Part shown: positions 13,102-43,435 of the stretch, piece by piece
How the letters are laid out: each line of letters starts with the position of its first letter
How positions within the stretch are numbered: the first letter of the stretch is position 1
NCBI GenBank assembly: GCA_965248755.1
Contig: OZ252149.1
Span: 2,272,001-2,336,000, forward strand
DNA: 64,000 bases
From: Candidatus Latescibacterota bacterium
GTDB lineage: Bacteria; Latescibacterota; CBDEFO01
Direction of reading: 5' to 3'
Position numbers and translations under genes: made by a program
Notes under the pieces: generated by a model
What the model was told of the DNA's origin: nothing
The model's database searches: none
The model's input: the letters and a program-made list of their open reading frames with translations, nothing else

Positions 13102-13409
13102 ACTCCTGTCCTAGTAAGTCGTAACGAAAGTCTCAGTTGCTGCGCCCGTGGGTGCATACGATCCTGGCTGCTCCTTTCCGCTTTACTTTCCTTATCGTAC
13201 CTGCCAATAGATAACTGGCCTTTGGTTTCAGATTCAGAGATGTCCGTCTCCCCACGAACTCAGAAAGTATCGCCTTATCGGTCTCCAGAAAGGTAATATC
13301 CAAACTACCGATGAACTGGCCCAGAACGTTTTGAGTTACCTAAGTAATCGGAGCTGATGTCTGCTCATTAAAGGCGGAGTTGGAAACTCCTTGTTATCCA
13401 CAGTTTCAT

Positions 13410-37266: not shown

Positions 37267-37743
37267 ATGGAGATAAGGCGTATTGTTCTGATAATCTGTG
37301 GCCTGCTCGTTCTGGCCTCCATAGGCTGCTCGGCGGCTAAAGCGGCGGGAGAAGAGGTGTTTCGGGGAATGGGCACATTTGATCAAGAGCGATTCGGGGC
37401 GATGCAGGCCCGGATGGAGGCCATGCGGGCCTTAGATATCGATTGGCTCTGGACACGACTTTCCTTCGCGCTGGAGCTGACAGAAGCGCAGGAGCAACAG
37501 GTCAGAGAGCTGCAGAAGGATCCGTGGGAGAGGCGGGAGCAGATGATGGCTGAGGCGGAAGAAAGTGGGGACGCGGACTGGGTGGCCATCGCCAACAAAT
37601 TCAGGGATATGAAGAAGAACGTGCAGGGGAAGCTGGAGGGGATCCTCACCTAGGAACAGCAGAGGCAGCTTGCAGATCTGGAGGAGCAACAGGAGGACCG
37701 GATGAGCCAGTTCCAAAGGCGAGATAGGGTTTCTCCATTCTGA
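37267..37743 (+). pseudogene. Spy/CpxP-like lipoprotein with in-frame TAG at 37651
   Basis: SIGC lipobox, LELTEAQ; GILT-stop-EQ interrupts the second LTxxQ motif and the frame continues to TGA 37743. Confidence 0.65.
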
Positions 37744-37863
37744 TGAAGGCAGGCAATCTCGGCGGGACGTGGAATCTTGACGTTGTACGGAGTGCTGCCT
37801 GTCGCCCTCTGTTACGCTGAGTGAGCCGGACATTAGAGCGCTTGCTACGATCCATCCAAACAA

Positions 37864-37890
37864 GAGCCCCCTACGTTTCGCAGGGGGCTC
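37864..37890 (-). terminator. Intrinsic terminator-like hairpin closing the array
   Basis: GAGCCCCCT/AGGGGGCTC stem followed by TTGTTT on the minus strand. Confidence 0.6.
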
Positions 37891-37898
37891 ATTATACC

Positions 37899-39165
37899 GG
37901 ACATCCCCGTTCACACCCGTTTAGCAGTTCACCTAATCTGTAAGACATACTACCCAGGGTTATTCAGTCTTCTCAGATGTTGCGATCCAACAAGTTCAGC
38001 ACTGCTTCAAGCTCAGCACTAGTTGCTGAATAACCCTGGGTGACATACATTCTACTTACCTCACGGATTATGCAACAGAGATGTCCTTAACAGAAGGCCT
38101 TCACTTCCTAAAGCGTCATTACCATCAACGCTGTTACCCGAATACAGGACATTCCCGTTCACACCCGTTTACCAGTTCACCTAATCTGTAAGACATACTA
38201 CCCAGGGTTATTCAGTCTTCTCAGATGTTGCGATCCAACAAGTTCAGCACTACCTCAAGTTCAGCACCGCGGCAAGTTCAGCACCGCTTGCTGAATAACC
38301 CTGGGTGACATACATTCTACTTACCTCCGGATTATGCAACAGAGATGTCCTTAACAGAAGGCCTTCACTTCCTAAAGCGTCATTACCATCAACGCTGTTA
38401 CCCGAATACAGGACATTCCCGTTCACACCCGTTTACCAGTTCACCTAATCTGTAAGACATACTACCCAGGGTTATTCAGTCTTCTCAGATGTTGCGATCC
38501 AACAAGTTCAGCACTACCTCAAGTTCAGCACCGCTTGCTGAATAACCCTGGGTGACATACATTCTGGTATCCTACCCTACTACAAGCTCTACAAGCTGAT
38601 TTCTAATCTAATCCTAAACGTAGGGCGAAGAATACCTTGAGTCGATCAGGTGTCGTATCGTCGTATGCAAAACTCACAATACGACACATCAGTAGTCCCA
38701 TGGACTGGACATTCTACTTACCTCCGGATTATGAAAGCAGTTCACCTAATCTGTAAGACATACTACCCAGGGTTATTCAGTCTTCTCTGATGTTGCGATC
38801 CAACAAGTTCAGCACTGCCTCAAGTTCATCACCGCGGCAAGTGTAGCACTACCTCAAGTTCATCACCGCGTCAAGTGTAGCACTGCTTCAAGTTCAGCAC
38901 TTGTTGCTGAATAACCCTGGATGACATAGATCCAGGTATCTTACCCTACAAGTCCTACAAGCTGATTTCTAATCTAATCCTAAACGTAGGGTGAAAAATA
39001 CCTTGCGTTGATCAGGTGTCGTATCGTCGTCTTCGAAACTCGCAATACGACACCTCAGTAGACGGGTGGACTGGACATACTACTTACCTCCGGATTATGA
39101 ACCAGGAATGTCCAACGAGAAGGCCTCTACTTCCTAAAGCGTCATTACCATCAACGCTGTTACCT
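37899..39165 (-). repeat. Modular non-coding array of hairpin units (candidate ncRNA array)
   Basis: Four copies of ACCCAGGGTTATTCAG...CTGAATAACCCTGGGT plus four other recurring stem-loop modules; no long ORF; strand inferred from the upstream gene and terminator. Confidence 0.9.
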
Positions 39166-39270
39166 GATATATTGGGCCTTCACTTAGATAGTCACATTAA
39201 ACCGTTAAATTCTTTCAAAAAAATTCATAAAATAACATATCCACGTACTAAGTCTTGGATATCAGTTGAG

Positions 39271-39798
39271 TTACAGATAATATTGCAGACCTGCTTTCAA
39301 AGCCTCCTTTTCAAATTTCTTCGTTGCCCTGGCTATCCACGTTGCTACAGTGCCTTCAGGCACCTTCATCTCCTCAGCTATCTCTCGGTAAGAAAGTTCA
39401 CGACATCGTAGTGTTAAGACTTCTGCCTCTTTCGGTTTCAGACGGGATAGAAGAATCTCTTGAACTAACGACTTCAGCTCATCTTTTTCAAGCAACCGAT
39501 CGGGTTGGTTGTCCTCATCGTCAGCGACATTATCATCCAGTTCGCAAAATCTGCCCTTGTTACGGTAAAGGTCCTTTGCTCCGTTTACGCACGCTGTTAT
39601 AAGGTAAGCTTCAAGATTCTGGATTTCTTCCAGATTTTTCTGAAGCGCATAGCAGATAACCTTTTGCGTTACCTCTCTTGCTTCATCATCAGTACTTGTG
39701 TATCCCCTTGTTATGTGGAAGAATTTGTCGAGGAACTCTCTGTCCTTGAGTAAGTCAGAGATGGACGGGGAGCCATTAGGTAGTGTCCGTCTCACCAT
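39271..39798 (-). CDS. ECF-type sigma-70 factor
   Basis: Region 2 (DEAREVTQ...AYLITACVNGAKDLYRN) and region 4 HTH (LSYREIAEEMKVPEGTVATWIARA); AAGGAG RBS before ATG 39798. Confidence 0.85.
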   Translation of the reverse strand: MVRRTLPNGSPSISDLLKDREFLDKFFHITRGYTSTDDEAREVTQKVICYALQKNLEEIQNLEAYLITACVNGAKDLYRNKGRFCELDDNVADDEDNQPDRLLEKDELKSLVQEILLSRLKPKEAEVLTLRCRELSYREIAEEMKVPEGTVATWIARATKKFEKEALKAGLQYYL

Positions 39799-39976
39799 TT
39801 CTTTCTCCTTTCGATGATGCCAAGCGTCTACAAAAGATGACTTTACGCAATTGGCAGCGTGGGTTTCAGAAAGGCGGGTACACAACAGTATACTCCCTTA
39901 TTAAACTTCCTACAAAACTAAACACATCATCAAGACATGGAGATTCCTTTATAATACAAAGAACAGATTTACGACT

Positions 39977-40585
39977 TTAACCTAATTCGGGATATTCTCT
40001 TCCCTCCCTAAGATCGTTTACAAATATCAGCAGATCGTGAGAATGCTCCTTCAAGTCCACAACTTGGTCGGGGAGTGTCGCCACCTGTGTATAACCTATA
40101 TCCAGGAACATCTGAATAGCCCCATGTTGTTCCACCATACACTCAGCCCTTAATCTGTCCAAGCCGGTGTGCATGGCTATTTCCGTCAACTCGCCCAAAA
40201 GCAGACCTGCTAGACCTCGGCGTCTGTAGTCAGGATGCACGACCGTCCGAACCTGTCCCGTGTGCCTCATCCAGCCCATCCTGTGATGATGCAGTGAAGC
40301 TTCCCCTATAATCTTCCTCTCAAGTTTTGCTACTAAAGGGATAACTCTACTTAGATCTACATTGGCGCACCATCCGTCAATGACAGACTCATCCGTCACA
40401 TCGTCCCTCAGGAACATCCTGTCCCTTGCCGGAATCTGGAGGAAGAATTGCATAAGTTCCTCCTTATCCCAGCTCTCCAATAACTTTATCGTAACTTCAG
40501 TACCGTCCTTCAAAGTCTCCACCTTCGGATATATATCCCCGAAGACTTCATCTAAATAGCTATCTGATAGAGTCTCCTGCAGCAT
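39977..40585 (-). CDS. GNAT acetyltransferase
   Basis: VVHPDYRRRGLAG acetyl-CoA motif; AGGAGG RBS. Confidence 0.88.
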   Translation of the reverse strand: MLQETLSDSYLDEVFGDIYPKVETLKDGTEVTIKLLESWDKEELMQFFLQIPARDRMFLRDDVTDESVIDGWCANVDLSRVIPLVAKLERKIIGEASLHHHRMGWMRHTGQVRTVVHPDYRRRGLAGLLLGELTEIAMHTGLDRLRAECMVEQHGAIQMFLDIGYTQVATLPDQVVDLKEHSHDLLIFVNDLREGREYPELG

Positions 40586-40719
40586 TTTGTCACCTCCTGG
40601 TTACTTGCGCTATAGTGGGTTTTAACACCCTAACAGTTTCTCTTAAGTGTCTTCCGTAATGGCCGAATTTTCCCGATCATCAAAGGAGATTTTGGTACGT
40701 TCCGTGGAAACTTCCTGAT

Positions 40720-41082
40720 CTACTCACAGGAAACTTCTATCTCCGCCGGCTCTCCTAACATAAAAAGAGCGACGATACTGCCTGTTAAGGAACTAATCGC
40801 TGTTTGAACGTCAACAACCTTGCGCCCCATAGTCTCCACGATCACATCTTCCAGATATTGGCGGGGACCCTCAAAAAGAAGCGCATTAAACTCCCTTAGG
40901 AGATTTTGGCCCTTCTGGCTTAAGGCCAGATGTTTTTCAGCAGGAGAGAGCATCTCTTTGAGATGGACGACGATCATATCCTCCTCTATCAGGACAGTTG
41001 CTTTCCTGGGGACTATTCCCATCTGTAATTCCTGAAATTTAGTGATCTCCTCACAAATAGCATCTTTAAGATCAGCGTTCAC
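40720..41082 (-). CDS. DUF2294 (MpsC/YbcI-like) protein
   Basis: FQELQMGIVP...LSPAEKHL...GQNLL pattern. Confidence 0.8.
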   Translation of the reverse strand: MNADLKDAICEEITKFQELQMGIVPRKATVLIEEDMIVVHLKEMLSPAEKHLALSQKGQNLLREFNALLFEGPRQYLEDVIVETMGRKVVDVQTAISSLTGSIVALFMLGEPAEIEVSCE

Positions 41083-41129
41083 GGTTTGTCCCTTTCTCTA
41101 ACAATAGATGAATACTCTATGACTGCTTC

Positions 41130-41393
41130 TTATTCAACTGCTATGCACGTTATCGTCTTTGTCACACCGGCAATGCTCCTCACCTGGGATGTAATCGCTT
41201 CTCCCAAGCCATTGCTGTCATCTGCCTGAATATGAGCCATAATATCGAAAGATTCCATTAGGGTAGTAAGATCCCGTAACCGTCCTTCTGCAGGGCCGAC
41301 AAATTTTATCCCTTCTATGTCGGAGAGCTCCTCCACGACATCTTCCACACTGTCGCCCGCCACATCTATCAGCACATAAGCTCTAACAGACAC
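41130..41393 (-). CDS. Lrp/AsnC ligand-binding (RAM) domain protein
   Basis: VRAYVLI...FDIMA...VRSIAGVTKTITCI; GGAGGTG RBS before GTG. Confidence 0.8.
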   Translation of the reverse strand: MSVRAYVLIDVAGDSVEDVVEELSDIEGIKFVGPAEGRLRDLTTLMESFDIMAHIQADDSNGLGEAITSQVRSIAGVTKTITCIAVE

Positions 41394-41431
41394 TATCTTA
41401 TCACCTCCTCCAAAAGATTTGTTTGTATAGC

Positions 41432-41512
41432 ACAAAAACAAAAAGCCGACGCAAAAAGACCCATATACTGGGCTCTGCGTCGGCATACTTTTCAACAAGC
41501 CATCTTTTTCAA
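41432..41512 (-). promoter_or_regulatory. Terminator/attenuator-like leader, copy B
   Basis: GCCGACGCA...TGCGTCGGC stem plus T tract between DUF2294 remnant and AsnC gene. Confidence 0.7.
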
Positions 41513-41576
41513 GAGTGCTATTTAACTAATCTGCCGAATTAAAACTGCTACCAATATACCGTATTTAAATTAATAT

Positions 41577-41830
41577 GTCAAGACTTTTTTGACGAAGTGC
41601 CCCCTTGAGGGAGCATTTCCTCAAGGCGCTTGTCCAGAATGAAAAGTATGACCCTCTCGCCTGTCCTCGTGCTGATGTCAGTATGAATGCTGGTGACTTT
41701 ACATCCAGATAAGGTTACAAATTACATCCTCCAAAAGCGGACGGGAGAACTCCATAAGCTGCATCTTGATCTCTTTGATCAATCCCGATCCTTTTGGACT
41801 CTCACCCAATTTTTGTTCAGCAGGCGTCAA
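41577..41830 (-). pseudogene. DUF2294 3' remnant
   Basis: Near copy of 44224-44472, lacks the 5' part, early stop at 41699. Confidence 0.8.
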
Positions 41831-42025
41831 AGGTCCAAGGATAACTCCCGCTAGACCATCTATCTGGCCGCTCTTTCTGGTTAGGTTTCTTTTCAGACTT
41901 TTCCCGAGGGCTTCTGACAGATCGTGAACAGGCGAGTCTATATGGTTAAGGTTGAAAACTTCGCCTACCAAATCTGAAGGAACTTCGAAAAAGGGCAAAA
42001 CGACGTCCCATTTTTTGGCAGTTTG

Positions 42026-43435
42026 TCATTCGAAGAAATCGTCTAACCAGCACGCCTCATCATTTAACGGAACGGTAAATATCTTTCCCACATCTTCTTC
42101 ATCTCTGCAGGAATGGTACTTAAGGATCAAATTTTCCTTTTCGTCTTGCACTATCGTGCCGAATATCTCAATCTTACCTGTATAATGCGACATCGCGTAT
42201 CTTACTGTCCTTGCCAGACCGCCTAGACCCTTCTTGGACTCCTCGAAGATTCTCAATCCTTCTGCTATCGGGACGCGGTAGTGCAAGCTCCCCTTTACGG
42301 GCCGCATCTGAAAGAGATAATACGGAGCGACCCCAGCATCTGCCAATCTCCTAAATAGCTCCCTCAGCACATCCGGATCATCGTTAATGCCTCTGTGCAA
42401 CACCGCCTGGTTGATAATGTGCGCACCTGCCTTAATGGCCTTATCTAAGCACTCCAGCGACTCCGCCGTCAGCTCCCTCGGATGATCGTAATGCGCGACT
42501 ATGTATATCCTCCTGTCCGGCAGACTATATCTCTTTATCAACTCCAGAAAACCATCGTCTAATATCCTGAAAGGATTAAACGCGGGCAGCTTTGTGCCGA
42601 GCCTTATGATCTTTATGTGGTCTACTGTACGCAACTGACTGAGAATAAAATCCAGCTTTTCGTTGACCAACATCAGAGGATCACCGCCCGTAATCAAGAC
42701 ATTATCTACCTCTCTATGTCTTCGCAAGTAGCCGAGAGTGCCTTCCCAATCGACACCTGTCTCTTGTTTTGATATAGACCCAGTAGTGAAGCGTTTTCTG
42801 AAGCAATATCTGCAGTAAGATGCGCAGACCGAAGTGGGCAAGAGCAAGACGGTATTTCTGTATTTGTGCTGCAACCCTCTTACTTGCACGTTATCTGCCT
42901 CTCCGCTGGTGTCATACTGGCCCCCTTCCCTAAGCTCATCGACTGAGGGTACGACTAATTTCTTCAGGGGATCGTCTGGATCGTGTGGATCGATGAGGTC
43001 AGCGTAGTATGGCGTAATGCCCATTTGAAACTTCCTAAGCACTATCGGTAGTTTCTCTTCTTCCTCTGGCGTCAGTGCTACATATTCTCGCAGTTTATCC
43101 ACAGTCCGTATGCTATCAATCAGTTCCTGTCTCCATCTTTCCACCTTTCGCGACGATCCCTCAGAAGCTACCTTGATGGCCCCTGGTTCCTCCATCGTCT
43201 CTCTGGATCCCGCCAGATGTAACACTTTTTCCAAAGAAGCTACAACCTTTCTGATAGGGCTGCCGAGGTCATTGCTGCTGGTCGATGAGCGCCTACTGAT
43301 AGAGTGTCTTCTTATGATATGTCGTAATTTCCTGCTCTTTCTCGGAGCCGAAGTCTTTCTTGAAGCCGAGGCTAGACCACCCTGGGGCCGCTCACCGATT
43401 TGAACACCTTCTTTTGCTTCATCTTCCCAAGTCAT
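42026..43435 (-). CDS. KamA-family radical SAM aminomutase-like protein
   Basis: GLQHKY, CASYCRYCFRKR, ITGGDPL, NQAVL..GIND, PYYLFQ. Confidence 0.9.
   Translation of the reverse strand: MTWEDEAKEGVQIGERPQGGLASASRKTSAPRKSRKLRHIIRRHSISRRSSTSSNDLGSPIRKVVASLEKVLHLAGSRETMEEPGAIKVASEGSSRKVERWRQELIDSIRTVDKLREYVALTPEEEEKLPIVLRKFQMGITPYYADLIDPHDPDDPLKKLVVPSVDELREGGQYDTSGEADNVQVRGLQHKYRNTVLLLPTSVCASYCRYCFRKRFTTGSISKQETGVDWEGTLGYLRRHREVDNVLITGGDPLMLVNEKLDFILSQLRTVDHIKIIRLGTKLPAFNPFRILDDGFLELIKRYSLPDRRIYIVAHYDHPRELTAESLECLDKAIKAGAHIINQAVLHRGINDDPDVLRELFRRLADAGVAPYYLFQMRPVKGSLHYRVPIAEGLRIFEESKKGLGGLARTVRYAMSHYTGKIEIFGTIVQDEKENLILKYHSCRDEEDVGKIFTVPLNDEACWLDDFFE

Follow-up and report, generated by a model that had tools for sequence, protein, structure and literature searches.

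What takes the place of an anti-sigma gene behind an ECF-type sigma factor that has none? In the window, a 64,000-nt stretch of the genome of a Candidatus Latescibacterota bacterium (G000:C1:2272001–2336000; positions below are those of the window unless a contig or locus label is given), the gene for a divergent ECF-type sigma factor is followed by an array of recurring inverted repeats. A preliminary description of this locus had proposed that the array yields several RNAs that bind, inhibit or direct the sigma factor. We find that it is a real, undescribed and genus-restricted tandem array of a structured unit, which is co-inherited with the divergent sigma gene and is separable from it. 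The source genome (G000) is a single contig of 4.54 Mb and is 98% complete; the only other genome of the genus (G001) is 96% complete. The stretch was also contained, in small shares, in metagenome runs, sponge, marine and vent samples among them.

The array is built from one duplicated and reshuffled unit

Read along the sigma strand (the minus strand of the window), the ~1.3-kb array consists of a single ~400-nt unit with the module order B-E-D-C-A-G-F, tandemly duplicated and reshuffled, and of a terminator (T) that stands once at the end. The first module begins 106 nt past the sigma stop, close to the distance first described, behind an AT-rich spacer (39165–39270) that has no significant fold and contains the TTTAA of an IS1182 junction in G001 (~39201; see below). 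The spacer is followed by unit 1 (38734–39164; B-E-D-C-A-G), in which hairpin A holds six copies of a 17-bp repeat (38804–38901), by unit 2 (38403–38733; E-D-C-A-G-F) and by unit 3 (38139–38402; B-E-A-G-F), from which D and C were deleted when a 7-nt microhomology at the end of E recombined with that at the end of C. Unit 4 (37891–38138; B-E-A-G-F) is a near-identical tandem copy of unit 3 (period 264/248). The array ends, as had been reported, in an intrinsic-terminator-like hairpin (37856–37890; hairpin with T-run at 37864–37890) whose T-run lies on the minus strand, i.e. the sigma strand. The window array thus has the order BEDCAG-EDCAGF-BEAGF-BEAGF-T; a second array in G000 reads BEDCAG-EDCAG-EDCAGF-T, and the array of G001 has a third order, BEDCAG-EDCAGF-BEDCAGF-T.

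The hairpins of the preliminary description could be located, with some changes. The arms of stem A are perfect over 16 bp at 37952–38041, 38200–38306 and 38464–38553, and over 14 bp in the fourth copy (38765–38922). Hairpin D is present at 38639–38691 and 39005–39057, hairpin C at 38554–38638 and 38923–39004, and the window array has four copies of module E. Hairpin B also exists, but its core lies ~24 nt from where it had been placed (at 38112, 38376 and 39138) and folds no better than shuffles (z −0.8). All of the recurring modules are there, but as parts of one tandemly duplicated unit rather than as separate elements. Similarly, stems do vary less, as described, but the loops, which were said to vary, are mostly identical between copies; the variation sits in the number of 17-bp repeats and in a few hotspots.

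The 17-bp repeat is arranged in tandem within hairpin A and contains a small dyad (AGT-N5-ACT). Across ten A hairpins its copy number ranges from 1 to 8, and the repeats are always inside the closing stem. When the non-coding gaps of G000 of at least 700 nt were ranked by internal repeat content, the two arrays came first and second of 379 (0.69 and 0.56; the next gap reached 0.36). One other gap (G000:C1:4502100–4503200) holds an AT-rich tandem duplication of ~590 bp, which is unrelated to the array save for one chance 11-mer.

The array is confined to one genus

G000 has two array loci, each behind a near-identical copy of the divergent ECF sigma gene, and no array modules were found in this genome outside the two arrays. 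The array is therefore not a dispersed MITE/REP family, and a MITE, REP or BIME origin was rejected. G000 also has an abundant family of small hairpins (the source of its top 14-mers), which is unrelated in sequence to the array. An assembly artefact is unlikely, given that G001 has a different module order and that an independent contig bridges the G001-type junction.

By BLAST, 2 of 168 genomes of the phylum matched the array, and these were G000 and G001; the same two were the only matches of covariance models in sets of 146 and 40 genomes. There were no matches in plasmids or phages. Three pattern searches of viral contigs returned 0, 94 and 0 stretches, and BLAST of 80 of these 94 gave no match to the array. 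Searches of 58 and 66 loci with two covariance models (R1 and R2) gave no match; most of these loci were generic ECF loci outside the clade of this sigma factor, so that this result is not decisive on whether sigma and array occur together. One match 440 nt behind another ECF gene turned out to be coding sequence. Rfam has no family for the array and gave only sub-threshold miRNA and snoRNA matches; the C/D-box match, which is not conserved, goes back to GTGATGA variants found in 5 of ~40 repeats. No description of a sigma gene with such an array was found in the literature covered, including the available parts of PMC7776599 and PMC8309996, a coverage outside which most subscription papers fall. 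The words ‘sigma’ and ‘ECF’ are absent from the main text, as far as available, of a preprint (10.64898/2026.10.21.760802) whose cluster database could contain the element.

The array was duplicated with the sigma gene and outlasted it in the sister genome

The sigma gene ends a co-oriented row of genes on the minus strand: a KamA-family radical SAM protein (aminomutase-like; 42026–43435), an Lrp/AsnC ligand-binding-domain protein (41130–41498; the true start is probably internal), an MpsC/DUF2294-family protein (40720–41082), a GNAT acetyltransferase directly upstream of sigma (39977–40585) and the sigma factor itself (39271–39798). The presence of KamA-like and GNAT genes in one row with AsnC-like and MpsC genes (39977–43435) is reminiscent of ablA-ablB osmolyte operons. 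Of the MpsC matches in G000, five are full and two partial, and every one lies in the two cassettes. On the other side of the array, a convergent gene for a weakly Spy-like exported protein (37267–37653, plus strand) lies outside the duplicated cassette. This protein has 128 aa here, where it is ended by a TAG (37651–37653), and 143 aa in G001.

G000 has three copies of the sigma gene. The second, with its array, lies between two serine-recombinase genes; its companions there are a sigma2-like gene and a large ORF without a Pfam match that looks, by eye, primase-like. From the flanking recombinases and the accompanying genes, this cassette is probably cargo of an integrative element, into which array and terminator were duplicated together with sigma; homology between the two arrays stops ~14 nt past the terminator hairpin. 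The second-locus cassette is absent from G001. The third sigma copy arose from tandem amplification of AsnC-MpsC-GNAT-sigma; its last codon is joined to the next AsnC gene, and no array follows it directly.

In G001 the array is complete and at the same locus as in the window. However, ~1.7 kb between two TTTAA sites, comprising half of MpsC, GNAT and sigma, has been replaced by an IS1182-like element, and neither protein nor DNA searches found a close sigma in this genome. The deletion may be recent; it therefore shows that the array can persist without the sigma gene, not that the array never served it.

The sigma factor is divergent and has no adjacent anti-sigma gene

The 175-aa sigma factor matches Sigma70_r4_2 in Pfam (E 4.8e-12), and Sigma70_r2 only at E 0.0065, below the cut-off. 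It passes the cut-off of TIGR02937, and its fold matches ECF sigma factors. With a sigma2 domain (weak, below the Pfam cut-off), a sigma4 domain, no sigma3 and a length within ~200 aa, it has the make-up of an ECF (group 4) factor; neither terminus carries a regulatory extension. In region 2.2 the motif is EARE, compared with DAED or EAED in its four nearest relatives. According to the part of PMC8999054 that was available, the acidic DAED of region 2.2 serves core binding, and its loss lowers binding in another ECF group.

By sequence, this sigma factor is nearly an orphan. The nearest relatives outside its own cluster of four are 35–42% identical and lie on short metagenome contigs, the four nearest on contigs of 1–6 kb. 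A search of the phylum matched 1 of 168 genomes at E 1e-15, there were no close matches in plasmids or phages, and scans of sigma-clade loci returned only generic sigma-like proteins or nothing. Upstream of the gene, AAC-N15-CGTA (39842–39868, minus strand) is a possible ECF-type promoter and a candidate for autoregulation; it is kept in all three sigma copies but is weak and near chance.

As first described, no anti-sigma gene lies downstream: there is no such ORF in the 1.4 kb behind the sigma stop. At three of the eight other sigma-like loci listed in G000, the sigma gene is followed by an ORF which begins, by eye, like a zinc-finger anti-sigma protein. The sigma copies differ by 12 non-synonymous and 10 synonymous codon changes. 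In the region-2.4 helix (39555–39582, codons 73–81, compared with G000:C1:2458538–2459062 and with P0153) the residues are G, R or T at position 73, Y or N at 78 and K, D or E at 81. Judged from sequence, these region-2.4 differences may shift −10 specificity.

Folding of the units and selection on the stems

Relative to shuffled sequences, the fold z-scores were −4.8 for hairpin A, −3.3 for D, −2.1 for C and −6.7 for the terminator; B, G-F and the spacer folded no better than shuffles. A single unit gave −4.1 in the sense and −5.0 in the antisense direction. In an alignment of eight units, 13 of 112 paired columns were variable, as against 33 of 139 unpaired columns (Fisher p 0.014, with units that are not independent). 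Covariation, which had been proposed as a check, was not above the control: both sides had changed in 1 of 56 pairs, a value reached by 126 of 500 shuffles, and the sequences are too close to give power. One-sided changes in stems were compatible with G-U pairing in about six cases, as against four A-C. Since the 13:3 count of G-T to A-C is non-independent and the background is 221:148, no strand asymmetry is established.

Between G000 and G001 the array diverges by 4.4%, the flanks by 0.5–2.7% and 4-fold sites by 4–8%. The array is therefore at the level of synonymous sites and above its flanks, i.e. there is no constraint at the sequence level. One unit has four private changes, each of which lengthens or restores a pairing; this was judged by eye and counts as one event. 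In unit 1 (38997–39051), two linked private changes keep a 7-bp pairing of the D loop with the sequence after D; this alternative pairing is possibly a pseudoknot or a switch, as judged from that single event. Taken together, selection on the array stems is weakly indicated. Antisense pairing of the array to the sigma mRNA was no better than in shuffles.

RNA-library contigs cover part of the array

That the array is transcribed, as the preliminary description supposed, is weakly indicated by RNA-library contigs from three runs (two samples, two studies), which cover 38335–39181. Because DNA can be present in RNA libraries, these contigs may derive from it, and they carry no information on strand, ends or level. 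One of these contigs joins modules in the G001-type order. The 155-nt RNA pieces in runs X17 and X18 may be amplified duplicates. No listed piece from the three runs lies over the sigma ORF, a contig gap that proves nothing.

The array does not belong to a tested RNA-guided or sponge family

We compared the array with known systems that place structured RNAs near a sigma gene or in tandem. At dCas12f-sigmaE loci, as set out in the available part of PMC13472631, an ECF sigma gene likewise has tandem, similar structured RNAs downstream at the same locus. In contrast to the ~400-nt array unit, however, the RNAs of those loci are guides of 85–105 nt that follow and bind dCas12f and carry a 14–16-nt guide. 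No Cas12f or TnpB, which had been described as absent nearby, is encoded in the genome: PF07282 had no match in G000, with control matches in 8 of 14. Nor is the array CRISPR-like, again as described, with no unique-spacer repeats, no Cas1 match in G000 and no PADLOC match among 12 proteins. No spacer-like or target-matching segment was found: for the seven variable segments of the window array, the longest matches elsewhere in the genome were 12–15 nt, the chance level, and a guide RNA was rejected.

Like TIGR arrays, as far as described in the part seen of PMC12045711, the array stands in tandem beside a gene and ends in an intrinsic terminator, and its 17-nt period is close to the 18-nt TIGR half-period. 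Unlike them, it lacks alternating repeats of 8–12 nt and variable 9-nt spacers, and its repeats are near-identical. The Nop domain (PF01798) had no match in G000, with a profile that may miss divergent Tas proteins.

The array shares with 6S, Ms1 and CoRP RNAs that it is a long structured non-coding element; CoRP, of 516 nt, is processed and genus-restricted (PMC11077062, part seen). Those RNAs are single-copy and bind core or primary-sigma holoenzyme, whereas the array is tandem, varies in copy number and lies behind an ECF gene. The array shows neither an RF00013 match nor the long, centrally bubbled duplex of 6S RNA, and it was rejected as a 6S RNA. However, Rfam found no 6S RNA in G000 and none over the cut-off in 40 genomes of the phylum, so that the 6S model is insensitive in this phylum.

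We also considered sponges and repeats without a sigma link. Sponge RNAs such as CsrB and RsmZ display a repeated motif on hairpins, with many GGA in loops; GGA is not enriched in the unit (8 against 8.7 expected) and a Csr/Rsm sponge was rejected. The single csrA of G000 adjoins fliW. The LDR toxin repeats of Escherichia coli are tandem structured units of several hundred bases, and intergenic VNTR loci have strain-variable repeat numbers. An LDR-like type I toxin-antitoxin was rejected, with three weakly hydrophobic ORFs, none shared between the arrays, and no conserved hydrophobic peptide ORF. Plain VNTRs lack the several long stems and the terminal terminator that the array has. A comparison by eye with IS200/IS605 ends, HEARO/omega RNA, attC, dif, LexA boxes and plasmid iterons showed that motif order or spacing does not fit. 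Among the RNA-guided and sponge families tested, none includes the array.

A proposed reading: the array as an amplified 3′-tail RNA

The reading that we tentatively favour, while holding it at somewhat under even chances, is that the array specifies an amplified, structured RNA at the 3′ end of the sigma operon, which binds proteins multivalently and is tuned through its copy number. A gene for a multi-hairpin RNA of ~400 nt would have been amplified in tandem and would make up the 3′ tail of the AsnC-MpsC-GNAT-sigma row; it would be transcribed in the same direction as sigma, up to a single intrinsic terminator. The number of domains and repeats displayed would change as units recombine unequally and the 17-bp repeat slips. 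The RNA would most likely be a stable multivalent protein-binding RNA (a sponge or scaffold), which would make the array a cassette output tuned by copy number. The link to sigma would be one of co-transcription and co-inheritance, not an obligate physical partnership.

This reading is suggested by the fact that one unit accounts for all three arrays. We also count for it the 17-bp repeats, which vary in number within the closing stem, the folding of a single unit, the lower variability of paired columns, the RNA-library contigs, the T-run of the terminator on the sigma strand and the end of the duplicate ~14 nt past it; the RNA strand, protein binding and any effect on the cell are what we infer. 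Against it count the covariation at control level, the one-sided stem changes, the divergence of the array and its absence outside the genus; no partner protein was found. If the array is a functional RNA, it would add a large structured RNA not described before, with a dose that recombination alters and that comparison of strains could follow. As the element is known from one genus and its link to sigma rests on adjacency and one co-duplication, its likely significance is moderate.

Possible alternatives: an unselected mosaic, or a decoy for the sigma factor

A possible alternative, which we nevertheless doubt, is a repeat mosaic not under selection: in a duplication-prone genome, slippage, unequal crossing-over and template switching would have amplified a 3′ spacer that contained a few inverted repeats, and it would be transcribed only as read-through. 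Template switching perfects inverted repeats without selection. The neutral rate of array divergence fits this alternative, as do the lack of a covariation signal, the confinement to one genus, the intact array left after sigma loss in G001 and a neighbourhood rich in microhomology junctions and tandem duplications (the 88-bp GNAT duplication and sigma/anti-sigma fusion described below). However, no other of the 379 gaps of G000 resembles the array, three different long stems and a terminator occur in one unit with stems less variable than loops, the duplicate ends just past the terminator, and the private changes seen in one unit, four in number, all favour pairing, as one event judged by eye.

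We consider it unlikely that RNA from the array stands in for an anti-sigma protein, i.e. as a multivalent promoter mimic or decoy that would bind the ECF sigma or its holoenzyme without a Cas-like adaptor in between, at a dose set by the number of repeats. In such an arrangement, the TGAAC-bearing 17-bp repeats and the ATGTC words would mimic the −35 and −10 elements of ECF promoters, inhibition would be tuned by the number of units and 17-bp repeats, and the G001 array would be a recent orphan of the IS1182 deletion. The sigma factor has neither an anti-sigma gene nor a regulatory extension, compared with anti-sigma-like ORFs at three of the eight other listed loci; array and sigma were moved jointly on one occasion; the most frequent 5-mers in the unit are TGAAC and ATGTC; and the sigma copies differ at region-2.4 positions 73, 78 and 81. 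In addition, by the part of PMC11077062 that was available, RNA polymerase is bound by a diverse set of structured RNAs, which can be limited to a single genus.

Against this, one of the three sigma copies has no directly following array and G001 has an array but no sigma, so that a sigma-plus-RNA system, if there is one, is not obligate; on these grounds, and with no target-matching segment and no covariation above the control, the proposal that array RNAs bind, inhibit or direct the sigma factor is not supported. A 5-mer seen four times arises in 62% of shuffles (p 0.08 for the 7-nt form), TGAAC and ATGTC are not spaced as in a promoter, the single AAC-N15-TGTC match, in module F, is no more than expected by chance, and the array has no 6S match. 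Sixteen ECF groups have no known regulator (PMC7826278, part seen), so that a missing anti-sigma gene needs no RNA explanation. Were the array to bind sigma directly, an ECF factor would have an RNA for its anti-sigma, which could help explain such groups; we found no case of this kind in the literature covered, most subscription papers being outside that coverage.

Less likely readings: a mini-ORF element or an array of DNA sites

Module E contains a 6-nt match to the 3′ end of 16S rRNA, followed by a 7-codon ORF that runs into hairpin D (MSSPPVY at 39055–39078 in unit 1, minus strand, with the 6-nt Shine-Dalgarno match upstream; MSSPWDY at 38689–38712 in unit 2). E-D could be an RNA toxin or translation-sensing element that stalls ribosomes or drains a tRNA like CreT and makes the cassette addictive, an explanation to which we give little credence. 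The order of Shine-Dalgarno sequence, mini-ORF and stable hairpin is that of CreT in the available parts of PMC8501985 and 10.64898/2026.06.02.729485. The 7-codon frame is kept in seven of the eight units, two consecutive proline codons occur in four of the eight, including the first unit of each array, codons 5–6 are the most variable window of the unit (six alleles in eight units), and one array copy is integrative-element cargo. However, a 6-nt Shine-Dalgarno match with ATG, noticed after the fact, occurs in 4.8% of shuffled units. The prolines are not beside the stop and are absent from half of the units, and the Shine-Dalgarno sequence is predicted to be partly paired. Unlike CreT, as far as those sources describe it, the array has no CRISPR-Cas or CreA, its codon pair is not conserved and it is embedded in a much larger repeated unit; the genome has no Cas1 and no antitoxin candidate was found.

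It is very improbable that a DNA-binding protein docks on the 17-bp repeats as iteron- or operator-like sites set between inverted repeats: the 17-bp repeats are oriented, vary in number and carry a small dyad, with an AT-rich tract at one end and inverted repeats that fold on either strand, but no replication or partition gene adjoins, one hairpin has a single repeat only, and the repeat is absent elsewhere in G000 at up to two mismatches, i.e. there is no regulon.

Rearrangements around the second array

At the second locus (L001), a 9-nt microhomology joins the beginning of an anti-sigma gene to the 3′-terminal 42 nt of a fourth copy of sigma (G000:C1:2449935–2450020; L001:4936–5021), depriving a canonical ECF paralogue of its anti-sigma. 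The 3′ ends of both GNAT copies of this locus carry an exact 88-bp tandem duplication (L001:6462–6636 and 13162–13336), by which the protein is lengthened from 202 to 231 aa. A non-autonomous IS1182 derivative of ~357 bp (e.g. L001:9178–9534) is scattered in many copies through G000 and G001, with at least 30 in G001.
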